From: an uncultured Syntrophorhabdus sp.
GTDB taxonomy: Bacteria; Desulfobacterota; BSN033; UBA1163
Reading direction: 5' to 3'
Assembly (NCBI GenBank): GCA_964477935.1
Contig: CAYZFX010000011.1
Span: forward strand, 3,277-67,276
DNA length: 64,000 bases
A program made the position numbers and the translations under genes. This document shows, one piece after another, positions 7,130 to 36,537 of the stretch. Under the pieces are notes generated by a model. The model made no database searches, was not told where the DNA came from, and was given only the letters and a program-made list of their open reading frames with translations. The first letter of the stretch is position 1. Each line of letters begins with the position of its first letter.

Positions 7130-7888
7130 ATGGTTGGTAAATTTAACCCGGTTAAACAGTTTAGGGTCTCCGAGGGAGTGATTAACCAGCTAAAACACTC
7201 CATCCTCCTTGGCCATTTTAAGGCGGGCGAAAGATTGCCCTCGGAGAGGGAACTTGCCGAAGAGTTCCGGGTCAGCCGGATGGCGATCCGGGAGGCCCTG
7301 AGAGCCCTTGAGCTCTCCGGATTCATAGAGACACGGCAGGGGATCAATGGCGGGGCCTTTGTAACGGATCTCACCTTTGAACATCTGGGCAATGCCTTCC
7401 TCGATCTCTTTTTAGCTGATAAGATCTCCATCCCCGAGATGTTACAGGTCAGACTCCTCATCGAGCCAGAGGTAGCCAGGCTTGCGACCTTGAACATTAA
7501 TCCCTCCTATACCCAGAGGTTGAAAGAAGCCCTTGAGCTTGAGGAACTCCCTCCGACCTCATTGATCCACGACGTCGAGATCAAACAGAACTTCCATTTT
7601 ATTCTGGCGGAGATGGCTGGCAATCGGTTCTTTGAAGCGATTGTCCGATCACTGTTAAAGTTGACCAAAAATCTGGTATTGGGAGTGGATGTGGGCCCTC
7701 GCTTTATCCATCCGGCAGGCATGCATCGAAAGGTGGCAGAGGCTGTTCTGTCCGGCAATCCGGGGGATGCTTATGAGGCGATGAGGAGGCATACCCTTGA
7801 GTTCGGAGAGAAACTGATCGAACTGGAAAAGGCCTACCGGCAAAAGAAAGCCCTTCTCTCTTATGAAGGGATGTTCCTCGATCGATAG
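7130..7888 (+). CDS. GntR/FadR-family transcriptional regulator
   Basis: wHTH RLPSERELAEEFRVSRMAIREAL plus FCD domain (FHFILAEMAGN, HRKVAEAV). Start moved to ATG 7130 (MVGKFNPVK). Divergent from the ligase operon. Confidence 0.93.
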   Translation: MVGKFNPVKQFRVSEGVINQLKHSILLGHFKAGERLPSERELAEEFRVSRMAIREALRALELSGFIETRQGINGGAFVTDLTFEHLGNAFLDLFLADKISIPEMLQVRLLIEPEVARLATLNINPSYTQRLKEALELEELPPTSLIHDVEIKQNFHFILAEMAGNRFFEAIVRSLLKLTKNLVLGVDVGPRFIHPAGMHRKVAEAVLSGNPGDAYEAMRRHTLEFGEKLIELEKAYRQKKALLSYEGMFLDR

Positions 7889-8412
7889 ACTTCTTTCCCC
7901 TTCTTCTTCAGAAAATAAAAAAATCCCCGGGTAAGTCCATAACCGAGTAAAGCCCCCGTGAGAATATCGGTGGGATAATGTAGACCTAAATAGATTCGGG
8001 TCCATCCGATGAGCCCGGCAAAGAGGTAGAAGGCAATCCGATATCGGGGAAACCAGCGGGCCAGGAGGGTGGCCATCATGAAACTCAAAGCAGCATGGAC
8101 ACTGGGGAAACTTGGGTCGAGGATCTCTCCAGGGCCCCCGGAGAGCTTTGAAGCCATCTCCGGGAGATGATGGAAGGGTCTCTCCCGTTGAACGAGAAAT
8201 TTAAGGCCATAGAGGAGGGCGGATTGAAGGACATAGAGAAGGAGGAGGTGGCGAAAGATCCTTCTCGATTTGCTCGGGACCAGTGTGAGCAGGAGAAAAA
8301 GGAGAACCGCCACATGACTTCCGAGATGGGTCAGCCAGGGGATCGTCTGATCGAGAAACGGTGTGCTCCACCATCCGTTTGCCCACCGCATGAATTGGAG
8401 TTCCCAACCCAT
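7861..8412 (-). CDS. PAP2-family membrane phosphatase (undecaprenyl-PP phosphatase-like)
   Basis: K..VQRERP, PSFPSVH and TRIYLGLHYPTD motifs; hydrophobic. Confidence 0.92.
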   Translation of the reverse strand: MGWELQFMRWANGWWSTPFLDQTIPWLTHLGSHVAVLLFLLLTLVPSKSRRIFRHLLLLYVLQSALLYGLKFLVQRERPFHHLPEMASKLSGGPGEILDPSFPSVHAALSFMMATLLARWFPRYRIAFYLFAGLIGWTRIYLGLHYPTDILTGALLGYGLTRGFFYFLKKKGKEVYRSRNIPS

Positions 8413-8447: not shown

Positions 8448-9107
8448 TTATAAGAGGGGAAGCAGAGGGATGATGTCCGCCAAATTCTCACTCCGAACGC
8501 AGACGCTGGCCACCCTTTCAAGGTCGGTGCAGGAGGGATTGAAGGCCACCGAGAAACCGACCATCTCGAGCATGTCGAGATCGCCATGGCTGTCTCCGAT
8601 GGCGATGGTTTCTTCGGGCCTCACCTCAAACTGTCTCAGGATTTTCTCAACCCATTCGGCTTTTTGGTCATAACGGACCCGGATCCTCACTTTCCCGTTT
8701 AAGATTCCATCCTCCCAGAGGAGGTCATTGGCGACGGAATAATCGAACCCGAATCTCTGATGGACCCAGTCGGCAAGGAGGGAGAGGCCGGAAGAGACCA
8801 TTGAAAGTTTCAGCCCCTTCCCCTTTAAATAGGAGATCAATTCCTCGGTACCCGCATGGAAAGGAACGGTTTGGATGATTTGCCTCATCTCCTCCACCCT
8901 CATCCCCTTCCAGACCTCGGCATCGCGTTCGCAGAATTCCTGATAGGTGATCTCCCCTGCCAGAAACTGCCTCTGATACTCCTCGGCCAGGCCATACCAT
9001 TTTCCTAACCGAACATGGATATATTCCCAGACGGACCGCTCCCTCGTCAGCGTCCCATCGAGATCGAAAACGACCAATTTGAATCGTTGATCTTTTTGAA
9101 AAGTCAT
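8448..9107 (-). CDS. HAD-IB phosphatase (phosphoserine phosphatase-like)
   Basis: FDLDGTL, VSSG, K and IGDSHGD HAD motifs I-IV. Confidence 0.88.
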   Translation of the reverse strand: MTFQKDQRFKLVVFDLDGTLTRERSVWEYIHVRLGKWYGLAEEYQRQFLAGEITYQEFCERDAEVWKGMRVEEMRQIIQTVPFHAGTEELISYLKGKGLKLSMVSSGLSLLADWVHQRFGFDYSVANDLLWEDGILNGKVRIRVRYDQKAEWVEKILRQFEVRPEETIAIGDSHGDLDMLEMVGFSVAFNPSCTDLERVASVCVRSENLADIIPLLPLL

Positions 9108-9528
9108 TTCCTTAAACAGACTAAAAATTTTTACAGGTTCGAACGATCTCCATGAAGAGCCGGAGGTTTTCCTTGATCCCTATATCCCCACGATGCTATT
9201 ATCGATGGGTCTCACCTCTCCTGCGAGTGCAAGGGGTGTCGCGGCAGGCCGATTAACTCCTTCTCTTTTTTCGAGTATCTTGGTCTCTTAGTTCTTCCCA
9301 CATTGATCGAATGGAAATCTTACCCGCCAACGCGATGCCCCCTGGGACTCTTCCGCAGAAGACGGGAGACCACCTCTCACCGGGTCAAAAGCCCCTTCCC
9401 CTCACCTGAGGGGATAAAAAGGATCGAATCCTTTTGGTGACTGGAATCGGACCCAGATGGAAGCGACATACGGCTATTTAATAAAATTCTGAAGGAAAAG
9501 GCAAGAGGGTGATCTTGATCCGGTATCC

Positions 9529-10787: not shown

Positions 10788-12172
10788 TCACCTATTCCAT
10801 CTATGTTCTGGACGACGAAGAGACCATAAGGGAAGGGATTACCATGGCCTTGGAGAAGGAATACAGGGTGAAGACCTTCTCCACGGCCAAGGCCGCCCTT
10901 GAGGCCATTCCAAAGGATCCCCCGGACTTGATCATCCTGGATATCGGCCTTCCCGATATGAATGGCATCGAGGCTCTCCGCAAAATCAAAGCCCTTCTTC
11001 CTGAAGTTCTGATCATCGTCGTCACCGCTTATGAAGATATTGACACTGTTGTCTCTGCGATGAAGCTGGGAGCGAGCGATTATGTGGTCAAGCCGATTCA
11101 TATGGAAGGCCTGACGATCACCATTCACAACGCCATCGAGACCATTCGTCTGAGAAAAGAGGTTCAGATCCTTCAGGAGAAATATCTTAAGGAAAACCTC
11201 CCCTGTTTTATCGGTGAAAGCAATGTGATTCACGACGTGATGGAATTTGTAGGGATGGTGGCCAGGAGTCCCGATACACCGATCCTCATTCTCGGTGAGA
11301 CGGGGACGGGGAAGGAGTTGGTTGCCAGCGCCATCCACTACCACAGCCCCAATTTTATGGGGCCTTTCATCACGGTTAACTGCGCGGCCATTCCAAAGGA
11401 GCTCATAGAGAGCGAACTCTTCGGGTATGAAAGGGGGGCGTTTACAGGGGCAAGCGTATCTGGCAAAAAGGGTTTGATCGAAGAAGCAGCCAATGGGACG
11501 CTGTTTCTTGATGAGGTGGGGGATTTGAGCCTCGAATCACAGGCGAAACTCCTCCGTTTTCTCGAAGCTGGAGAATTTTATAGAGTAGGTGGGACGAAGA
11601 AAATACAGGTTCGGGTTCGGGTGATCTCCGCCACCAATAAGAATCCTGAGACCCTGATCGAGACAGGCCAGTTCAGGAAAGACCTCTACTATCGGCTGGG
11701 GGTGATCAAAATTCAGATTCCGTCGTTAAACGAGCGTCGAGAAGACATCATCCCCTTGGCCAAATTTTTCCTGGTACGATTTAATAAGAAATTTGGAAAG
11801 AAGTTTACGGGCTTCACCCCACAAGCAGAGAGGGCCTTGGTGGATTACCACTGGGTTGGGAATGTGCGGGAATTGAAAAATATGATCGAGAGGGCTGTTT
11901 TAACCAGCAAGGGTCCGGAGCTGACGAAGAAGGACCTCGGAATAGAGGAACGGAGCCTTGCCGATGTCTCAAGCCAGTTCGACCCGAAGCAGGTTATTTC
12001 TCCCCTCCCTCCGGAAGGCATTGACCTTCCTGCTCTCCTGGAATCCATAGAGAGGAGGTATATCCAGGAGGCCCTTCAAATGGCTCAAAGGAACGAAAGC
12101 AGAGCGGCAAGATTGCTCCACCTGAACCACCATACATTTCGTTATCGGAAGAGAAGATTACAGATCAAATAG
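10784..12172 (+). CDS. sigma54-dependent response regulator (NtrC family)
   Basis: Receiver domain (DDE, D, K), GETGTGKE, GAFTGA, LFLDEVG, WVGNVREL, C-terminal HTH; ATGA overlap with the kinase gene. Confidence 0.96.
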   Translation: MITYSIYVLDDEETIREGITMALEKEYRVKTFSTAKAALEAIPKDPPDLIILDIGLPDMNGIEALRKIKALLPEVLIIVVTAYEDIDTVVSAMKLGASDYVVKPIHMEGLTITIHNAIETIRLRKEVQILQEKYLKENLPCFIGESNVIHDVMEFVGMVARSPDTPILILGETGTGKELVASAIHYHSPNFMGPFITVNCAAIPKELIESELFGYERGAFTGASVSGKKGLIEEAANGTLFLDEVGDLSLESQAKLLRFLEAGEFYRVGGTKKIQVRVRVISATNKNPETLIETGQFRKDLYYRLGVIKIQIPSLNERREDIIPLAKFFLVRFNKKFGKKFTGFTPQAERALVDYHWVGNVRELKNMIERAVLTSKGPELTKKDLGIEERSLADVSSQFDPKQVISPLPPEGIDLPALLESIERRYIQEALQMAQRNESRAARLLHLNHHTFRYRKRRLQIK

Positions 12173-24979: not shown

Positions 24980-27457
24980 TCATTCCAGTTTCACGATCCG
25001 GCATCGGGCGAGGTCTTCTCCCTTCAACCCCAGCAGGGCCTCGAGGGCCTCCATGGGCTTGACCGTCTTTCCTCCCAGGCTCATGAGCACAAGTTCGATC
25101 ACTGTGGCCTTCTCCGGGTCCTCCCCTGAGGCAGGCTCCATCACCTCGACCCTCTCGATCAAGGGGAGCAGGTCGATCTTCCTTCTCTTCTCCTTTCTTT
25201 CCTGGAGAATGAAGAGCTCCCGGTTCTTCAGGCTCCGGTTCAATGTCGATCGGGCCTCTTCGGCCGTAAGGAGACGATCGAGCGTAATCTGATAGACGGA
25301 TCGATAATCCTGGGAGGGAGAGGAGATCGGGAAGAGGATCTCCTTGGCCTCGGTGATTTCGATCCCTGGGGGTAGGTGCTGATTGAGTTTTGCCATCAAC
25401 TCCCCTGCCCCGATCCTTCCCTCCAGCTCGATGTCCACCCACTCTCTCAAGCTCTCCACGCCCACCGGTAGGGCCCTCTCGAAGATGATCCTTGGCATCG
25501 GATGGAACCCATCGGAGTGGCGAAGAGGGAGGTCAGCCCGTTTGGCAGCCCGGTAAAAAAGGGTCGCCAGTTCCAGATGGCTGACAAATCGAATCTCTCC
25601 CTTTTTTACAAAGGCCAGCCGGAATTTTGTCCTGAGTCTCTTCCTTCGAACTTCCCTCCATCCTTCCTTCCGAGGGGATTGGAGTTGAAGAGGAGGGGCT
25701 TCCCTCAACATGATCTCCTTCCCGTCGCAAAGGCCACAGCGGTGGCAATCGCTTCCCGGACAGGAAGCGCTGACCTCTTCCTTCAAGGCCTTCTGATACT
25801 CCTCCCAGAGGAATTCGGTCCGGATCCCCGTATCGATGAAGGACCAAGGAAGGGGTTCCTCCCGCTCCTTCTTTCGGGTATAGGCGGCCATGTCGAGCCC
25901 CGCCTTCTCAAAGGCTTTTTCCCAGAGATCATAATGGAACTGATCGCTCCAGCCATCGAACCGACACCCAAGCCGGTGGGCTGCGACCAGCACGCTGGAA
26001 AGGTTTCGGTCACCCAAAGCGAAGACCCCTTCGAGGAGGCTGAGCCGTGGGTCTTGCCATTTGAGACGGAGATGTTTCTTCTTCAGGTTCTCCTTTAAAT
26101 AGCGGAGTTTCTCTTTAATCTCCGGAAGGGGAAGGGGCGATTCCCACTGAAAAGGCGTATGGGGTTTGGGCACGAAGGTGGAGACGCTGACGCTGATCTG
26201 GGGGTGGCTTTTCATTCGTTCGCCCTGGGCAGAGATCCTCAGGGATAGATCGAGGATGGCGCGCACATCCTCTTCCCTCTCCGTGGGGAGGCCGATCATA
26301 AAGTAGAGTTTGAGATTTTTCCAGCCCAGGGAGAAGAGGTCCCGGACGCCCTGAAAGAGGAGGTCTTCCTCTAACTCTTTATTGATCACCTTCCGGAGCC
26401 GCTCAGTGGCCGCCTCAGGAGCGATGGTGAAGCCTGTCTTACGAACCCGCTTGATTTCACCGGCGAGACGGCCGACCAGGCTTTCGATTCTCAGGGAAGG
26501 GAGTGACACCGCCACCCGTTTCGACTCGAACCGGTCCATCAGACTCGTAAGGAGTGGGGCGATGGAGGAGTAATCTCCTGCGCTGAGCGATAGGAGGGAG
26601 ATCTCCTCATAGCCTGTCTGTTTCAACCCGGCCTCAAGGATCTTTCGAATCTCGTTCGGATCCCTTTCCCGGTAAGGTCGATAGATAAATCCTGCCTCAC
26701 AGAAGCGGCATCCCCGTTTGCACCCCCGGGCGATCTCCATGCTGAAGCGGTCATGAACCACTCGCATGTAGGGGACGACGGGACAGGTGGGGAAGGGGGC
26801 GAGGTTGAGATCGGCAACGATCCGTTTCTGAACCTTTTGTCCCCTGAAGAGGCTTGGCACATAAACGCCCTTCACCTTCGAGAGGGCCCCCAGGAGGTCA
26901 TCCTTTTTCCCCCGGACCTCTTTCCACGAGAGGACGAGATCGCAGATCTCGAGACTGACCTCTTCCCCGTCACCGATCACCACGGCATCGAGGAAGTCGG
27001 CCACAGGTTCCGGATTGAAGGCGTTGGGCCCTCCGGCAATGACGAGGGGAAACCGTTCGTCCCGATCCTTCGCATAAAGGGGTATGCCCGAAAGGTCGAG
27101 CATGTTGAGGAGATTGGTGAAGCAGAGTTCGTATTGGAGGGAGAAACCGAGGATATCGAATTGAGAAAGGGGGGTGGAGGACTCCAGAGAGGTTAAAGGG
27201 ATCTCCTTCTCTCTCAGAATCTGCTCCATATCGCCCCAGGGAGCAAAGACCCTTTCGCAGGCGATCTCTCTTCTTGCGTTTAAGAGGTGATAGAGAATCT
27301 GAAGGCCAAGGTGGGACATACCCACTTCATAGACATCGGGAAAGGCGAGGCAGAACGTCAATTTCACTTCGGAAGGATCTTTTTCGATGGCATTGATCTC
27401 CCGGCCGAGATATCTGACCGGCTTTGAGACGAGAGGGAGGTAGGTTTTCACAGACAT
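24980..27457 (-). CDS. TIGR03960 B12-binding radical SAM protein fused to TIGR03936 (DUF2344) domain
   Basis: FPDVYEVGMSHLG, RGCKRGCRFC, FVPKPHTPFQW and C-terminal RFVSHL...GFHPMPR. Start set at ATG 27457. Confidence 0.93.
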   Translation of the reverse strand: MSVKTYLPLVSKPVRYLGREINAIEKDPSEVKLTFCLAFPDVYEVGMSHLGLQILYHLLNARREIACERVFAPWGDMEQILREKEIPLTSLESSTPLSQFDILGFSLQYELCFTNLLNMLDLSGIPLYAKDRDERFPLVIAGGPNAFNPEPVADFLDAVVIGDGEEVSLEICDLVLSWKEVRGKKDDLLGALSKVKGVYVPSLFRGQKVQKRIVADLNLAPFPTCPVVPYMRVVHDRFSMEIARGCKRGCRFCEAGFIYRPYRERDPNEIRKILEAGLKQTGYEEISLLSLSAGDYSSIAPLLTSLMDRFESKRVAVSLPSLRIESLVGRLAGEIKRVRKTGFTIAPEAATERLRKVINKELEEDLLFQGVRDLFSLGWKNLKLYFMIGLPTEREEDVRAILDLSLRISAQGERMKSHPQISVSVSTFVPKPHTPFQWESPLPLPEIKEKLRYLKENLKKKHLRLKWQDPRLSLLEGVFALGDRNLSSVLVAAHRLGCRFDGWSDQFHYDLWEKAFEKAGLDMAAYTRKKEREEPLPWSFIDTGIRTEFLWEEYQKALKEEVSASCPGSDCHRCGLCDGKEIMLREAPPLQLQSPRKEGWREVRRKRLRTKFRLAFVKKGEIRFVSHLELATLFYRAAKRADLPLRHSDGFHPMPRIIFERALPVGVESLREWVDIELEGRIGAGELMAKLNQHLPPGIEITEAKEILFPISSPSQDYRSVYQITLDRLLTAEEARSTLNRSLKNRELFILQERKEKRRKIDLLPLIERVEVMEPASGEDPEKATVIELVLMSLGGKTVKPMEALEALLGLKGEDLARCRIVKLE

Positions 27458-27520
27458 CCATCCTAAATCGAAGGGTGAGGCGGGAGAAGCCTCCACGTTT
27501 AACTTTGGCGATTTATTTTT

Positions 27521-29817: not shown

Positions 29818-30695
29818 AGGCCCTTTGCATTCTCCTCGCATTTCTTTTAGGAGGGACCGGGATTGCGCCTCCCGGCCTTGCTGAGGACCTTCAACGTTTA
29901 CCTCCCCATTATCGGGATCTCGTGGACCGGCTGATCAAAGACGGTCTCGAGAAGGACTTTTTAATCCCTCTCTTCCTCGATCCCCGTGCCGAACCCATTC
30001 CGAACCGGTTGACCATCTCCCTGATGACCCGGGAGGTCCCAGAGCTCTACACCAGATTTCTGAGCTTCGAATCGATCCTTCTCGCCAAGGGTTTTCTCCT
30101 GGAACATCGCCGCACCTTGAACGAGATGGAGAGGACCTTTGGCGTGGAAAAGGAGATCGCCGTTGCCATCCTCCTCGTCGAGTCGCGCTTCGGCGAGAAT
30201 ATCGGGAGACACAGGGTCATCCCCACCCTGGCCTCTCTGGCCCTGTTGGATTCTCCGGAGAATCTCGCCCGAAACTTTTCGGACATCTGGTTGGAGAACC
30301 CAGAGGTCCCCTATAGCTGGATCGAATTCCTGGCCAGCCGAAGGGCCAGATGGGCCTATCAGGAGCTGAAGAAGTTCCTTGAGATCGTCCGTTCCGAAGC
30401 GATCGACCCCCTGGAGATCTATGGGTCCATCGCCGGAGCCCTGGGCATGCCTCAGTTCATTCCCTCCAGTTATCTCGCCTATGCGGTCAAGAGGAATAGT
30501 TTTAAGGAGTGGTTATATGATGTGGATTCAGCCATCTTCAGCATCGGCAACTTTTTGAAGTCTCATGGATGGAGAATGGGGCTGTCCACCGCCCAGCAGA
30601 AGAAACTCCTCTGGCACTATAATCGCAGCGAACCCTACGGAGAGACGATCGTCGAAATCGCCCGCAGGCTTATGAAATCCACGAAGGAGCGTTGA
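29814..30695 (+). CDS. mltB: Lytic murein transglycosylase B-like
   Basis: Signal peptide; ILLVESRFG catalytic Glu, GSIAGALGMPQFIPSSY, SIGNFL..HGW and YNRS..Y motifs. Confidence 0.88.
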   Translation: MKALCILLAFLLGGTGIAPPGLAEDLQRLPPHYRDLVDRLIKDGLEKDFLIPLFLDPRAEPIPNRLTISLMTREVPELYTRFLSFESILLAKGFLLEHRRTLNEMERTFGVEKEIAVAILLVESRFGENIGRHRVIPTLASLALLDSPENLARNFSDIWLENPEVPYSWIEFLASRRARWAYQELKKFLEIVRSEAIDPLEIYGSIAGALGMPQFIPSSYLAYAVKRNSFKEWLYDVDSAIFSIGNFLKSHGWRMGLSTAQQKKLLWHYNRSEPYGETIVEIARRLMKSTKER

Positions 30696-30706
30696 ACGAG
30701 AGGATC

Positions 30707-31921
30707 ATGAAAAGATCTCTTCTCATCATCGCCACCCTCGATACCAAAGGCAGGGAGGCGGCCTTTGTGAGGGATTGTGTCCGAGAGAAAGGGACCGATA
30801 CCCTCCTGATGGATGTCGGGACGCTTGGTCCTCCCCTCGTCTCTCCGGATATCCCTTCCGAGGAGGTCGTCCGGGCAGCGGGCTACAACCTGCAGGAAGT
30901 GAGGGAAAAGAACGATCGCTCTTTGGCGATCCGGGCGGTCCAGGAAGGAGGAGCCATCATCGCAAGACGTCTCTATGGGGAGGGGAGATTGGACGGTCTC
31001 TTCGGTTTGGGGGGAGGGACCGGCACCGCGATCGTCACCCACATCATGCGGGCCCTACCCTTTGGCCTTCCAAAACTGGTCCTCTCCACCGTCGTCTCAC
31101 GGGATGTTCGGGAATATGTTGGGACGAAGGATATCGTGATGTTCCATTCGGTGGCGGACATTCTCGGGATGAATGAATTCTTACGGCTCATCCTCGGTCA
31201 GGCTGCCTGGGCCATCCAGGGAATGATGGAGAGGGGAAGTGTCGTACCGAGGGGGAAGCCGATGGTGGCGGTGACCGCCTACGGGATCAACTCCCTTTGT
31301 GCCCTCCATGCGGAACCCCTGCTCAAGGAAAGAGGTTACGAGATGATCGCCTTCCATGCCAATGGCTGTGGCGGCATGGCCATGGAGGAACTCATCGGTC
31401 AAGGCCTGATCGAGGGCGTCCTCGATTTTACCACCCACGAGATTGCCGACGAGATGTTCGGAGGATACTGCCGGGGGATCGGACCGAGCCGGCTCGAGAC
31501 CGCGGGCCTGATGGGAATCCCCCAGGTTGTCGTCCCGGGCGGGCTGGACAACGCGGTTTTCAGCCCTTTTTATCCGATGCCTGATCGATTGAGAGGCAGA
31601 AAGACCCACCCCCACGATATCCGGTTCTGTGTCCGGTTGGGTCCCGAGGAGATGGTGGAGTTTGCCAGGATCATCGGAGAGAAATTGAAGAAGGCCATAG
31701 GGCCTACCGCGGTCTTGGTCCCAAGGAAGGGCTGGTCCGAAGCCGACAAGCCCGGGAGTGACCTCTTCGATCCGGAGACCGATCAGATCTTTGTCGAAGA
31801 GCTCCGAAAGATCGTCGGTTCGCGAATCCCCATCGAGGAGGTAGAGGCCCATATCAGCGACCCAGCCTTTGCGAAAAGAGCTGTGGATCTCCTGGACGGG
31901 ATGATCCGTTCAAAAAAATAA
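30707..31921 (+). CDS. Tm-1-like ATP-binding domain protein (UPF0261)
   Basis: TLDTKG.E, GGGTGT, LPFGLPK..LSTV, FHANG.GG.AME and PG.LD motifs. Confidence 0.9.
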   Translation: MKRSLLIIATLDTKGREAAFVRDCVREKGTDTLLMDVGTLGPPLVSPDIPSEEVVRAAGYNLQEVREKNDRSLAIRAVQEGGAIIARRLYGEGRLDGLFGLGGGTGTAIVTHIMRALPFGLPKLVLSTVVSRDVREYVGTKDIVMFHSVADILGMNEFLRLILGQAAWAIQGMMERGSVVPRGKPMVAVTAYGINSLCALHAEPLLKERGYEMIAFHANGCGGMAMEELIGQGLIEGVLDFTTHEIADEMFGGYCRGIGPSRLETAGLMGIPQVVVPGGLDNAVFSPFYPMPDRLRGRKTHPHDIRFCVRLGPEEMVEFARIIGEKLKKAIGPTAVLVPRKGWSEADKPGSDLFDPETDQIFVEELRKIVGSRIPIEEVEAHISDPAFAKRAVDLLDGMIRSKK

Positions 31922-31970
31922 GATGAGAAATCCTTTCCTGACGGAGAAAAAGGAGACGAGCCATTAAATG

Positions 31971-32000
31971 GAAAAGCCCCTCTTTGAAAGGGGGCTTTTC
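31971..32000. terminator. Bidirectional intrinsic terminator
   Basis: GAAAAGCCCC-TCTTTGAAAG-GGGGCTTTTC hairpin between the convergent UPF0261 gene and the small peptide gene. Confidence 0.8.
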
Positions 32001-32133
32001 GTCTTGATTTCTGTGACCTTCGAAGACGTTCGTGTCTTCCTGAGGCAGGTTTTCAAACCCTTTCGTTCCGTTCTCTATCGTCGATAGGGCTTGAGGGGCT
32101 TCCTTCCTTCCTGAGAGGCAGCCCGTCACGATC

Positions 32134-32196
32134 TTAACAGGAGGCCTTACATTTGCACGTGGTGGCCAATCTCTTGGGGACCTTCTTGATCGTCAT
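32134..32196 (-). CDS. 20-aa basic Cys-rich peptide MTIKKVPKRLATTCKCKASC; not in the ORF track
   Basis: ATG 32196 to TAA 32134, preceded by AAAGGAGGTGA 5 nt upstream; has a dedicated promoter and a downstream terminator. Confidence 0.75.
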   Translation of the reverse strand: MTIKKVPKRLATTCKCKASC

Positions 32197-32223
32197 TGTC
32201 CTCACCTCCTTTCGCTAAACTTA

Positions 32224-32253
32224 AGGGTAGCACAACTGCCTGGCTAAAGGCAA
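32224..32253 (-). promoter_or_regulatory. sigma70 promoter of the small peptide gene
   Basis: TTGCCT-N18-TACCCT with extended TG. Confidence 0.55.
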
Positions 32254-32548
32254 CCTCGTCTCGATCTTGGTCATAAGGATCCTTCGCCCTTTCAGGCCGT
32301 TGGGTAACCTTTCAGTCAAAGGAACAAAAAGGGTTGGGAGGTTCCTCCGGAAAAACCTTGAGGCGAAACCTTGATTCATTTAACGACCGAGGCTTGCCTC
32401 AAAAGAATACCAATTCAAAAAAGGCAGGAAGACCCATTAGGGTCACTTCAATTGCCCGCCATTCAAGGTTTTGGAGGGGGAATCTTCCAACCCTATTGAA
32501 CCCATGTGCCTCCGTAACTGAGGGGTTACGCCGTTGGTCCGGTTTTTC

Positions 32549-32577
32549 TTGACATCTCCCCTTCGATTTGTTAATTT
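32549..32577 (+). promoter_or_regulatory. sigma70 promoter of the DHS-like gene
   Basis: TTGACA-N17-TAATTT with extended TG. Confidence 0.65.
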
Positions 32578-32612
32578 CCGCAACAATCCCATCCTACTAA
32601 AGGTGTCGGCCG

Positions 32613-33662
32613 ATGAGAGCGAGAGGGAAGACGAAATTTCTAAGGCATCCGGTTCATCCCATTGATGTGACGAAGACCCGGAACCTCTACGATCTGGTCC
32701 GGGCCTTTCAGCACACCTCGTTTCAGAGCCGAAATCTCTACAAATGTTTTGAGGTCTTTCGGAAGATGCTGGCCGACCCTTCCTGCGTCATCTTTTTGGG
32801 ATTGTCAGGAGCCATGATCCCGGGGGGGATGCGGAAGGTGATCCGGGATATGATCGAACTGAGGTTGATCGATGTCCTGGTTTCCACAGGGGCCAATATC
32901 TTCCACGATCTCTTTGAGAGTTTCGGCTATCGCCATTATGTCGGCACTCCGGAGGGTGATGATGACGCCCTTCGAAAACACCGGATCGTTCGGGTCTATG
33001 ATGCCCTGATGGATGACCATGAGATCAACCGGGTCATCCAGCTCCTCTCGGAAGTGCCCCGGGAGTTGGGGGAGGAGGTTGTCTCGTCCCGGAGATACCT
33101 CGAGGTCTTGGGAAATCAGCTCCAAGACAGGGGGTCCATTTTGAGGACCGCTGCCCGATGCGGGGTACCGGTCTTCGTTCCTGCCCTCAGTGACAGCTCG
33201 ATCGGCATCGGATTAACCTTCCTCCACGCCCGGAAGGAGAATCCTTCGGACGGATTGATCATCGACCAGATCCGGGATAGCTTCGAGATTGCCCAGCTGA
33301 AGAAGAAGGCCAAGACCACCGGCGCTATCTACATCGGCGGAGGGGTCCCGAAGAATTATATCCAACAACTGGGCCCTGTGAGCGAACTCCTGTTTAAGCA
33401 GGAGAGTGGTCACCGTTACGCCTTCCAGGTGACCACAGACGATCCCAAATGGGGAGGTCTTTCGGGATGTACCTTCGAGGAGGCCAAGTCCTGGGGGAAG
33501 ATCGAAAAGGAGTCGGCCTATGCCGCTGTCTATTTGGATGCCACGATCGCCCTCCCCCTCCTGGTGGGTGCTATCCTTCAGGAAGGCAGAGTTTACAAAG
33601 AGAGGAAGCGTAGAAAGTTCATCTGGGAAGGGGACCGCCTTCAATCCATCGCCTTCGTTTAA
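32613..33662 (+). CDS. Deoxyhypusine synthase-family protein (bacterial; probable polyamine/homospermidine synthase-type)
   Basis: FQSRNL, LVSTGAN..HD, PALSDSSIG, GGGVPKN, GGLSG...EEAKSWGK (catalytic Lys) and DATIALP motifs. Confidence 0.92.
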   Translation: MRARGKTKFLRHPVHPIDVTKTRNLYDLVRAFQHTSFQSRNLYKCFEVFRKMLADPSCVIFLGLSGAMIPGGMRKVIRDMIELRLIDVLVSTGANIFHDLFESFGYRHYVGTPEGDDDALRKHRIVRVYDALMDDHEINRVIQLLSEVPRELGEEVVSSRRYLEVLGNQLQDRGSILRTAARCGVPVFVPALSDSSIGIGLTFLHARKENPSDGLIIDQIRDSFEIAQLKKKAKTTGAIYIGGGVPKNYIQQLGPVSELLFKQESGHRYAFQVTTDDPKWGGLSGCTFEEAKSWGKIEKESAYAAVYLDATIALPLLVGAILQEGRVYKERKRRKFIWEGDRLQSIAFV

Positions 33663-33829
33663 AACGTCCTTTCCCTCTCCCCACCTTCTCTGGCGGCCAC
33701 CTTCTTGAGCCTTTCCAACCCCCCTTTACGACTTCAGGGTCTCTTTTGGGTGAAGAGGCTTGAAATTGGAGGAACAAGGGTTATATTATGGTATGTAAAC
33801 CCCTTGAAAAGAGAAGGAGTTTAATCTCG

Positions 33830-35611
33830 ATGAAGGACATTGAATCGAAGATTCCAGATCAGAAAGAGCTGGAAAGAGAGCTGAATGAATATTTAGGAAA
33901 GAAATACGGGGACCGGATCAGGCTCGTCGTGCCCATGCTCTTCCCCAAACCCCAGACCGAAGAGGTTTCAAAGGAGGAGAAAGAGGCGGGCGAGAAGAAA
34001 AGGAAGATCCATTTCGACATGAAACCCGAGGAGCTGGAGGCCTTTCTCAACGATTACATTATCCGGCAGGAGGAGGCCAAGGAGATCCTCGCCACCAAGA
34101 TCTGCACCCACTTCAACCGGATCAAGTTCACAGAGATGACGAAAGGGAAGACCCGCTATGAAGGGGTCGGTCACATCAAGAACAATATCCTGATGATCGG
34201 TCCCACCGGGGTCGGAAAGACCTATCTGATCAAGCTGATCGCCAAGAAGCTGGGCGTCCCCTTTGTCAAGGGCGATGCGACGAAGTTCAGCGAGACCGGT
34301 TACGTGGGGGGCGATGTGGAGGACCTTGTCCGGGACCTCGTCTATGAGGCCAACGGAGATATTGAGCTGGCCCAGTACGGGATCATTTACATCGACGAGA
34401 TCGACAAGATCGCCTCGTCCAACAATTTGATCGGCCCGGACGTCTCGAGGACGGGCGTTCAACGAGCCCTTCTGAAGCCGATGGAGGAGACGGAGGTCGA
34501 CCTGAAGGTCCCCCATGATCCGATCTCCCAGCTCGAGGCGATCGAACAGTACCGGAAGACGGGGAAGAGGGAGAAGCGGACGATCAATACCAAACATATC
34601 CTCTTCATCATGAGCGGGGCGTTCAACGGTCTGGAGGAGATCATCAAAAAGAGGCTCAACCGGGAGGGGATCGGTTTCGGTGCTGAGATTCGTTCGAAGG
34701 ACGAACGGGCGGAATATCTCAAGCAGGTGAAGGCCGAAGACCTCATCGCCTTCGGGTTCGAATCGGAATTCATTGGGAGGCTCCCGGTCCTTGCGGTCTT
34801 CGAGAAGCTCGAGGTGGAAGACCTCTTCGCCATCCTCAAGAATCCCAACAATCCGATCATCTTAGGGAAGAAGAAGGATTTCAAGTCCTACGGGATCGAT
34901 ATCCAGTTCGAAGAGGATGCCCTCTACGAGCTGGCGGTCAAGGCCTTCGAAGAGAAGACCGGGGCGCGGGGATTGGTCAGCGCGGTGGAGAAGGTCCTCC
35001 TCAAGTTTGAGAAGCGACTCCCCTCCACTGCCATTCGCCAATTCGTCGTCACCCGGGAGGTGGTGCTCCATCCGGAGCAGGAGTTGGAGCGATTGCTCCA
35101 AGACCCGATGAATCCTGAGCGGGTCGCCCGATTTGAGAAGCTCTTTGAACGGGAGAAGATGGAGTTGAAGGAATCGATCCGGAAACGAGAAGGGGAGTTC
35201 CGGAGGCGATACGGGGTCGCTTTTCCGGAGAGGCGGATCGACCTGATCGCGCACCGGATGCTCACCAAGGGATTCGATGTGAACACGGTCATTGAAGAGG
35301 TGGTGGAGGTCCAACGACAGATCGAGGATTTTGAGAGGCTCTTCGAACAGCGGAATGGCATCCGCCTGAGATTTGAAAATGAGGCGATCGATCGGATTAC
35401 GGAGATGGCGCTCGAAGAGAATCAAAGAGGCGAGATGGTCTGCTTCCGTCTCTTGAAGGATTACGAGCATGGCATCAAGCTGATTCGGGATCGGCTCGGC
35501 CGGAAGGAGCTTCTGATCACCCGCGAAGCGATCGACAACCCCGAGGAATATCTCAACCGGGTGATCCAGGAGATTTACAGCCGGCGAATCGAATCCGAAT
35601 TTGAGGGATGA
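33830..35611 (+). CDS. ClpX/HslU-like AAA+ ATPase lacking the N-terminal Zn finger, with a C-terminal extension
   Basis: [43 protein letters not shown] loop and TGARGL. Start set at ATG 33830 after AAGGAG. Confidence 0.88.
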
Positions 35612-35616
35612 GGACC

Positions 35617-36537
35617 ATGGCCACGAGAGACTATTATGAGATCTTGGGGGTCAGCAAGAACGCGACCGATGAAGAGATCAAGCGGGCCTACCGAAAACTG
35701 GCGATGAAGTATCATCCCGATCGTAATCCAAACAAGAAGGAGGCGGAGGAACGCTTCAAGGAGATCAACGAGGCCTATGCTGTTTTAAGTGATAAGGAGA
35801 AACGCAAACAGTACGATACCTTTGGCGCGGAGGGGTTCCGTCAGCGATTCACCCAGGAGGACATCTTCCGGGGCTTCGACATCGACGAGATCCTCTCGGG
35901 CCTCTTCGGCGGCCGGATGAGGACGGAGTTCAGGTTTGGGTCTGGACGAAGGGGGTTCGATTTCGGAGACCTCTTTGGAGGGGCTTATGGTTTTCAGGAT
36001 ATGGGCCAGACAGCCCAGAAGGGCGAGGACATCGTGTACGAGTTGCCCCTGACGATCGAAGAGGTCGCCACCGGGGTGGAGAAGAGGATCTCCTATCGAA
36101 AAAACGGGAAGGTCGAAGAGGTGTCCGTGAAGGTCCCCAAAGGCATCCCTGCCGGAAAGAAACTCCGCCTCGCAGGAAAAGGGATGGAAGGAAAGCGGGG
36201 CGGTCCTCCAGGCGATCTCTACCTTCAGATCTCCCTCCTGGACCATCCCCTCTACACCCGTGAGGGGGACGATCTCATTGTGGAGAAAGAGATCCGCTTT
36301 TCGGAGGCCGTACTGGGAGGATCGATCGAGGTTCCTACCCTCGAAGGAACGAAGAGAATCAAAATTCCCCCCGGGATCCAGAGCCACACGAAGTTGCGTT
36401 TAAAAGGGCTCGGCCTCCCCCATTTTCAGAAGGAGGGGAGGGGAGACGAGTATGTGAAGGTCATCGTGAAGGTTCCAAAGAAGGTGTCGGAGCGAGCCAA
36501 GACCCTGATCCAGGAGCTTGCCAGAGAGGGCATCTAA
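35617..36537 (+). CDS. Class B J-domain protein (DnaJ/CbpA-like, no zinc finger)
   Basis: [25 protein letters not shown] region and DnaJ_C domain (G..LRL.GKG, GDLY). Confidence 0.93.

Follow-up and report, generated by a model that had tools for sequence, protein, structure and literature searches.

A conserved, unannotated 20-residue cysteine-rich peptide gene linked to a radical SAM/SPASM enzyme family and orphaned at a locus of an uncultured Syntrophorhabdus

The stretch of DNA analysed here (hereafter, the window) comprises 64,000 nt of contig CAYZFX010000011.1 from an uncultured Syntrophorhabdus sp., and the subject of this work is a short, unannotated open reading frame (ORF) on its minus strand, at positions 32134–32196. 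The ORF consists of 20 codons plus a TAA stop, 63 bases in all (MTIKKVPKRLATTCKCKASC; ATG at 32196, TAA at 32136–32134), and lies in a 691-nt gap between a convergent UPF0261 gene, which ends at 31921, and a deoxyhypusine-synthase-like (DHS) gene at 32613–33662. It is preceded, on the same strand, by (i) a Shine-Dalgarno (SD) site (AAAGGAGGTGA; 32202–32212), with a GGAGG-to-ATG distance of 8 nt, and (ii) a promoter-like site at 32224–32253, made up of TTGCCT (32253–32248), an 18-nt spacer and the extended -10 element TGcTACCCT (32232–32224). A bidirectional intrinsic terminator at 31971–32000—a GC-rich hairpin with an 11-bp stem and T-runs on both strands—is common to the ORF and the convergent UPF0261 gene. 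The encoded peptide has a basic amphipathic N-terminal half and ends in TCKCKASC; it contains three Cys residues, no Tyr and no Glu. All four features lie where the first-pass annotation of this DNA had placed them.

That annotation considered such complete expression signals around so short an ORF unlikely to arise by chance. Evidence from the window sequence by itself is only suggestive in this respect: when the 691-nt intergenic region is shuffled, GGAGG followed, after 5–10 nt, by ATG and an ORF of at least 20 codons arises in 3.5% of cases. The promoter-like site is a candidate promoter only, being weak by consensus (7/12 positions) and absent from the output of a consensus scan. The comparative data are decisive: 92 homologous ORFs, each with an SD site, indicate that the ORF is not a chance combination.

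These homologues were obtained by scanning a metagenome collection with a back-translated, degenerate DNA pattern for T-C-K-C-K-A-S-C-stop (39 bits). The scan returned 97 sites, where about 2 would be expected by chance by our own estimate, which assumes that ~1e12 positions were searched. Ninety-two of the 97 sites share the same architecture: an (A/G)AAGGAGGTGA SD site, a start codon (ATG in every case except locus L164, which has TTG), exactly 20 codons and a stop. A 93rd site (L086) is cut by a contig end. The other four (L117, L151, L168 and L169) were rejected as unrelated matches; here the ...KTCKCKASC-stop motif is out of frame within an unrelated longer ORF, and there is neither a 20-codon ORF with SD site nor a radical SAM neighbour. 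The metagenome set contains 77 distinct DNA sequences, which encode 44 distinct peptides; for the family as a whole, the consensus reads M-x-I-[KR]-K-[VI]-x-K-[KR]-x-[SA]-x-T-C-K-C-K-x-S-C-stop. The window can be aligned with the family across positions 32088–32221, mostly 32094–32213, a block that has the SD site at its upstream edge and continues through the ORF to a post-stop hairpin.

While the invariance of TCKCKASC in the metagenome set is imposed by the search pattern, codons 2–12 were left free and are the ones used in the coding tests. These codons vary chiefly at their third positions; residues I3 and K5 never change, and K8 is present in 76 of the 77 sequences. Pairwise pN/pS (nonsynonymous relative to synonymous change) across codons 2–12 is 0.24, as compared with 1.58 and 1.17 in the two shifted frames. 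This is the synonymous-substitution signature on which the first-pass annotation had staked its claim of a real micro-gene. Judged by these comparisons, the ORF is a real, conserved, unannotated gene for a 20-residue Cys-rich peptide.

The family is absent from the resources searched. The window peptide has no NCBIfam match at E<=1 and the family-consensus peptide none at E<=0.1, neither peptide matches a Pfam model at E<=0.1, and literature searches (with motif strings, and with combinations of radical SAM, ATP-grasp, rubrerythrin and taxon names) turned up no relevant paper, in line with the initial failure to recognise the family. In both cassette-bearing loci that were read, L179 and L180, the ORF was left uncalled by gene callers. 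The L180 peptide ORF (~11168–11235) has one extra nucleotide within an A-run, and the ATP-grasp-like gene beside it is broken up into several calls; homopolymer error in long reads seems a better account of this than a pseudogene.

In 57 loci, the ORF lies directly downstream of, and on the same strand as, a gene for a radical S-adenosylmethionine (SAM)/SPASM enzyme of ~390 aa, with a median gap of 2 nt. At tight spacing, the SD site of the peptide falls within the last codons of the enzyme gene (...GVLKGGE-stop). The link to radical SAM chemistry, proposed earlier from the look of the peptide, is thus supported by gene neighbourhood. A gene for an ATP-grasp-like protein (~310 aa) is found 50–190 nt downstream of the ORF in 48 loci, and a CrtI-like flavin adenine dinucleotide (FAD) oxidoreductase is a frequent further neighbour (27 loci).

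The enzyme contains a CX3CX2C motif (C103, C107, C110) and nine invariant C-terminal Cys residues, and matches PF04055. Its AlphaFold2 model (pLDDT 89, pTM 0.90) begins with a four-strand sheet followed by helices, and this N-terminus is predicted to resemble a recognition element (RRE) of systems for peptides that are made on the ribosome and modified after translation (RiPPs), placed ahead of the radical SAM barrel. No PqqD Pfam match was found in the enzyme, so the RRE assignment is read from the model. In full-length fold comparisons, the RiPP maturases SkfB (E 3e-17) and SuiB rank first; TigE, anSME and PqqE come next, interleaved with non-RiPP radical SAM enzymes such as BlsE, MoaA and viperin. 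SkfB is also the best sequence match in the PDB. Many NCBIfam models of SPASM-type maturases match the enzyme, all with ~100 bits or less and far under their curated cut-offs; consequently, its reaction is not transferable by homology. At E<=1e-20, 2071 database proteins match the enzyme, a loose threshold that probably takes in other radical SAM families.

Some further observations concern the cassette. The ATP-grasp-like proteins (encoded, e.g., at 611–1552 of L101 and 11419–12333 of L179) start MYLGIDF...EVNVGLPGG. Such a motif normally lies in the C-terminal half of ATP-grasp enzymes; here it is N-terminal, with an ATP-grasp_3 match at residues 105–210, and the protein may be circularly permuted. 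No sequence relative of it was found in the PDB. In L188 (6207–7314), the gene order is radical SAM, ATP-grasp-like, peptide, instead of radical SAM, peptide, ATP-grasp-like; the former position of the peptide is occupied by a degenerate ...TIRKV... remnant with neither start codon nor Cys motif. Finally, one subclade of 21 loci (L139, L154, L157, L122 and others) has a near-consensus promoter, TTGACA-17-TAAAAT (or TAAGAT), 142 nt before the peptide ATG and inside the 3' end of the enzyme gene. This promoter-like site survives in truncated enzyme remnants.

A sample independent of the peptide sequence was obtained by using as query the enzyme of a divergent metagenome locus, L121, which is 40% identical to the Syntrophia-type enzyme. 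Several of its homologues are named as proteins of Nitrospirota or Thermodesulfovibrionales metagenome-assembled genomes (MAGs). Four homologues (50–54% identical to the L121 enzyme) were looked up, and led to five loci, L181–L185, of which L182 and L183 have the same sequence. Downstream of every one of these enzyme genes lies an uncalled ORF of 20–21 aa that ends in TCKCKSSC or TCKCKNSC and is followed by a strong terminator; no short gene has been called at the peptide position in any of the five. The peptides are MTIRKVQKKSALTCKCKSSC, MMIRKVTKKAATTCKCKSSC, MIIRKVSKRVSTTCKCKNSC and MTIKKVSKRVSLTCKCKSSC. The family thus ranges across Thermodesulfobacteriota (Syntrophia-type) and Nitrospirota, and the TCKCKxSC core is unvaried in all loci sampled from both phyla.

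The window differs from the cassette-bearing loci. As had been noted, no dedicated maturase is adjacent to the ORF, and neither the radical SAM enzyme nor the ATP-grasp-like protein has a homologue anywhere in the 64 kb. The radical SAM gene ~4.7 kb away, which the first-pass annotation had set aside, is a TIGR03960–TIGR03936 fusion (723 bits; 24980–27496, minus strand) that adjoins RNase G in relatives L186, L187 and L189. It has no relation to the peptide and was rejected as a maturase candidate: it is of the B12-binding type, its genomic link is to RNase G, and it lacks a SPASM domain.

Comparison with relatives suggests how this arrangement arose. In L103, L123, L150, L155, L160 and L188, the cassette stands beside the same convergent UPF0261 and MltB-like genes as are found in the window, with CrtI-like and rubrerythrin genes sometimes interposed; a HAD-like gene further on is common to the window, L103, L123 and L188, and not to L150, L155 and L160. 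Because relatives with the same flanking genes carry the full cassette, the window copy is taken to be an orphan left by in-place loss of the enzyme genes. On the opposite flank, synteny via the DHS-like gene leads to 43 Syntrophia-type loci that keep the DHS-like, ClpX-like and DnaJ-like genes without the peptide and the UPF0261 gene. Intergenic conservation with these 43 loci is limited to window positions 32543–32588, and the synteny break lies inside the intergenic region. The gene orders indicate that deletion or rearrangement removed the enzyme genes from this place, and that a rearrangement brought in the DHS block. Within that block (32613–36537), the DHS-like gene is followed by genes for a 607-aa ClpX-like AAA protein and a DnaJ/CbpA-like protein; a Lon-like protease gene comes next in L187. 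As for the UPF0261 gene, its start is probably 30 nt upstream of the listed TTG (30662–30692): a database protein with 99% identity is 419 aa long, and no exact match was found for the 409-aa product. The same kind of look-up with the DHS-like product led only to a contig of 1.7 kb.

One relative from a second species, L187 (MAG GCA_026415035.1; UPF0261 protein 85% identical), has the same orphan layout from UPF0261 to DHS, so the enzyme loss is not recent. Kept between the window and L187 are TTGCCT, GTTGTGCTACCCTT, the SD site, the ORF and ~115 nt of 3' untranslated region (UTR) with three hairpins; a terminator, different in sequence, is also kept at the equivalent place. By contrast, the promoter spacer has diverged (17 nt in L187), and the sequence upstream of -35 is unalignable. 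The two ORFs differ by six synonymous codons and four conservative changes (V6I, R9K, L10A and A11S), each of them at a position that is variable in the family. In a second relative, L189 (85% identity), no peptide is present in the 1.9 kb available downstream of UPF0261. Elsewhere in L189, just downstream of rubrerythrin, a 4HBT thioesterase gene and a short uncharacterised ORF lie between inverted copies of a ~120-nt element (7829–8098 and 8687–9155), an arrangement like that of a miniature inverted-repeat element.

Orphan copies occur in at least five other lineages. Some of these loci keep the last 45–100 codons of the enzyme gene together with broken ATP-grasp-like pieces; others keep nothing. 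All 26 orphan loci (21 distinct sequences) have an SD site, an intact start (TTG in L164) and an intact frame, with a pN/pS of 0.25; orphan copies could be found by the pattern only if their C-terminal motif was intact. Stand-alone copies L173 (TTGACC-18-TATTTT), L121 and L153 have promoter-like sites near -60, as does the window. The pattern of substitution marks the peptide gene of the window as an orphan under continued purifying selection.

Conservation extends into the 3' UTR. When 82 family sequences were folded individually, most showed a 12-bp GC-rich hairpin ~10 nt past the stop, and the consensus fold of 20 sequences displays GC/AU and UA/CG exchanges in this element. It is followed by a second family hairpin of 6 pairs, paired in 19–20 of the 20 sequences, and by a terminator-like third element. 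In the window fold, the post-stop hairpin (GGGCUGCCUCU...AGGAAGCCC; 32096–32124, minus strand) starts ~10 nt after the stop. A second small hairpin (AGGGUUUGAAAACCUG; 32046–32061, minus strand) is the counterpart of the CAGGUCUGAAGACCUG hairpin of cassette-bearing loci, and is kept in L187. Both window copies are imperfect, and the first contains mismatches. A third hairpin (GAAGACACGAACGUCUUC; 32022–32039, minus strand), present in the centroid fold, is specific to the orphan lineage and conserved within it (GAAGACCCGAAGGUCUUC in L187). An Rfam search of positions 31700–32800 (E<=10) gave sub-threshold chance matches only, among them a Thr_leader match on the terminator (15.7 bits against a cut-off of 55).

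Genes for antioxidant proteins recur near the module. Rubrerythrin lies beside it in 16 loci and also in L188, which in addition carries a catalase-peroxidase (KatG); Fe/Mn superoxide dismutase is found in four Nitrospirota loci, and nitroreductase in two loci. Ten loci have a convergent peroxiredoxin gene with an in-frame TGA at the position of the peroxidatic Cys (DFTFV-TGA-PTE), which probably encodes a selenocysteine peroxiredoxin. It lies ~670–1220 nt downstream of the peptide; the ten loci are L086, L100, L102, L104, L128, L139, L147, L148, L154 and L178. Antioxidant genes together with DsrC and DJ-1 were seen near the module in L181–L185, L188 and 11 Syntrophia loci, that is, in two phyla (Syntrophia examples: L103 3290–3889 and L130 9586–10197). 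None of these antioxidant genes is present in 80 control loci (822 kb in total). These counts come from interrelated loci and are not statistically independent; they hint at a link between the module and oxidative-stress defence.

On balance, we consider it likely that the ORF encodes a RiPP-type substrate peptide of an undescribed radical SAM family, which in the window would be either matured in trans or active unmodified. Under this reading, residues 1–12, the basic amphipathic part, would dock on the N-terminal recognition domain of the enzyme, and the C-terminal TCKCKxSC would be modified by radical chemistry. Cys-derived thioether cross-links on the core are the most plausible outcome, since SkfB is the closest relative of the enzyme; the analogy extends to sacti- and ranthipeptide synthases. 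In Syntrophia, the ATP-grasp-like and FAD enzymes would add further steps. The window would hold a stand-alone unit—promoter, SD site, ORF, three 3'-UTR hairpins and terminator—whose peptide either is acted upon by an enzyme from another part of the genome or functions as it is. Three elements of this reading are inferred: the role of the peptide as substrate, the kind of modification that it receives, and maturation in trans.

Several points weigh against this reading. Firstly, the window itself has no maturase. Secondly, the peptide has outlasted its enzyme genes in at least five lineages, which is unusual for a RiPP precursor and fits an enzyme-independent function equally well. Thirdly, a precursor of 20 residues leaves little space for a separate leader and core. 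Fourthly, no named NCBIfam maturase model gives the enzyme a score anywhere near its cut-off. Lastly, the invariance of the core has been tested independently by only five loci (L181–L185) with four distinct peptides.

The least improbable rival, though we judge it unlikely, is that the peptide works unmodified, as a small, basic, three-Cys metal- or Fe-S-binding or thiol-redox peptide, or as a partner or regulator of the enzyme, in oxidative-stress defence; a small metal or redox peptide was also the second idea of the first-pass annotation. Such a role is consistent with the intact, constrained ORF (pN/pS 0.25) at loci where the adjoining enzyme genes are deleted or fragmentary, with a core unvaried in both sampled phyla (typical antibiotic RiPP cores are not), with antioxidant genes near the module and in none of the 80 control loci, and with the lack of a consistently adjacent exporter or leader peptidase. 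However, tight and recurrent coupling to an RRE-type radical SAM/SPASM gene is a hallmark of substrate peptides, three Cys residues cannot by themselves complete a tetrahedral Cys4 site, and the neighbourhood signal comes from related, statistically non-independent loci.

Far less probable is that the ORF acts mainly in cis, as a leader peptide or RNA element (with its translation governing the post-stop hairpin and thereby read-through into the ATP-grasp-like gene), or that it belongs to a small RNA with an idle peptide. The 12-bp hairpin conserved ~10 nt after the stop and the further conserved hairpins of the 3' UTR could be accommodated in this way, and three Cys codons might in principle respond to the supply of cysteine. 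Yet constraint is seen at the amino-acid level along the N-terminal half, and the ORF is kept where no same-strand gene follows it (in the window, L187, L173 and the five Nitrospirota loci). There, a terminator and then a convergent gene follow, which is not the layout of the attenuator class; furthermore, no alternative anti-terminator pairing was seen and no Rfam family matches.

It is likewise very improbable that the window ORF is a non-functional, still undecayed relic of the deleted cassette. Consistent with a relic are the loss of both enzyme genes from the locus, the weak consensus match of the promoter and the mismatches in the post-stop hairpin. The orphan layout is nevertheless older than the split from L187, and six synonymous and four conservative codon changes have separated the two ORFs since; promoter elements, SD site and 3' UTR have been kept while the sequence upstream of -35 has become unalignable; and other orphan lineages show the same pattern. 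The remaining rival, that SD site, ATG and 20 codons came together by chance in a long intergenic region, draws on the 3.5% of intergenic shuffles in which such a combination appears, and is already refuted by 92 full-length homologous ORFs with codon-position-specific variation.

If the peptide is, as we prefer, the substrate of a radical SAM enzyme, then the nature of its product deserves consideration. No exporter or leader peptidase was seen consistently adjacent to the peptide loci. The unvaried core, the absence of consistent export or protease genes and the peptide's own expression signals suggest a product internal to the cell rather than a bacteriocin; and, since the core is unvaried in either phylum, a conserved physiological molecule (redox- or metal-related) is more likely than a variable antibiotic. 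A more specific version of this idea is offered tentatively, as possible rather than probable: the peptide could be the ribosomal precursor of a conserved redox cofactor, or of a thiol or metal carrier, that serves the defence of strict anaerobes against oxygen and peroxide. The dedicated radical SAM/SPASM enzyme would make it, the ATP-grasp and FAD-oxidase proteins would tailor it in Syntrophia, and extra stand-alone precursor genes such as that of the window would feed an enzyme whose gene lies at another site. This proposal draws on the unvaried core, the strong, independent expression signals, the absent export genes and the recurrent antioxidant neighbours.

Should the preferred reading be correct, the genomes of syntrophic and sulfate-reducing anaerobes contain a widespread, previously invisible gene family. 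Two properties would set it apart from ordinary RiPP clusters: the unvaried core in both phyla, and the repeated persistence of the peptide after enzyme loss. Both point to a housekeeping product (a cofactor, or a metal or redox carrier), possibly tied to oxygen tolerance. The work also illustrates how micro-genes beyond the reach of protein databases can be recovered with a short degenerate DNA pattern.

Among known systems, the module works like the radical SAM/SPASM RiPP and cofactor systems, and belongs to no named one. As in the generic precursor class, the family (though not the window itself) presents a same-strand ORF beside a radical SAM/SPASM gene, and the enzyme combines the radical SAM motif and auxiliary-cluster Cys residues with an RRE, the last as predicted by the model. 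SCIFF peptides are ~45 residues long, contain six Cys and are found in Clostridia (precursor TIGR03973, maturase TIGR03974; CteA/CteB, PapA/PapB). Like these and other ranthipeptides, the present system couples a small Cys-rich peptide to a radical SAM/SPASM maturase with an N-terminal recognition domain in strict anaerobes; the peptide is unusually conserved, with a suspected physiological role, and has short C-x3-C spacings with Lys, Ser, Thr and Ala between the Cys residues. Unlike SCIFF, it has 20 residues and three Cys, occurs in Thermodesulfobacteriota and Nitrospirota, and has an ATP-grasp-like partner that is not a SCIFF feature. Of the enzyme's 82 NCBIfam matches, the best 25 do not include the SCIFF maturase model and all lie far below cut-off.

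The sactipeptides (SkfA/SkfB, SboA/AlbA) are close in that SkfB is the best sequence and fold match of the enzyme, and in their Cys-to-carbon thioether chemistry on a short peptide, as is proposed here. Their maturases are distinct, with the enzyme scoring 55.9 bits against the AlbA model NF012164 (cut-off 850) and 80.5 against the StsB model NF045574 (cut-off 625); sactipeptide precursors, moreover, have greater length, vary in sequence and are accompanied by export and immunity genes; such genes are absent here. CcpA/CcpM (TIGR04068), ACGX, SynChlorMet and GeoRSP, each a predicted pairing of a short peptide with a radical SAM/SPASM enzyme, likewise emerged from neighbourhood analysis; here again the enzyme stays well short of the cut-offs (CcpM 57 of 500 bits, ACGX 100 of 400, ScmE 97 of 400, GeoRSP 88 of 400), and the peptides are unrelated. 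Metallothionein, rubredoxin and desulforedoxin differ in that the peptide matches no Pfam model (E<=0.1) and has three Cys, as against four ligands per site.

A further parallel is with the precursors of pyrroloquinoline quinone (PQQ) and mycofactocin, PqqA/PqqE and MftA/MftC. In these systems, too, a very short (20–30 aa), highly conserved peptide and a radical SAM/SPASM enzyme form a pair, the cell that makes the product also uses it, and annotation typically overlooks the peptide gene; the detectable relatives of the enzyme described here include PqqE and MftC. The differences lie in (i) the residues modified, which are Glu/Tyr (Glu-x3-Tyr) in PQQ and a terminal Val-Tyr in mycofactocin, as opposed to a Cys/Lys/Ser/Thr core with a KASC end, (ii) the recognition domain, which is separate there (PqqD, MftB) and fused here, (iii) the enzyme's score of 88 bits against the cut-off of 265 of the mycofactocin maturase model TIGR03962, and (iv) the surroundings, in which no dependent dehydrogenases are seen. 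If the cofactor proposal holds, the module would be a new counterpart of PQQ or mycofactocin. At 20 residues, its peptide is, to our knowledge, among the shortest to be linked to a radical SAM enzyme; peptide and enzyme families are both undescribed, and what distinguishes them from the systems above is an unusually short, non-varying substrate with a habit of surviving as an orphan.

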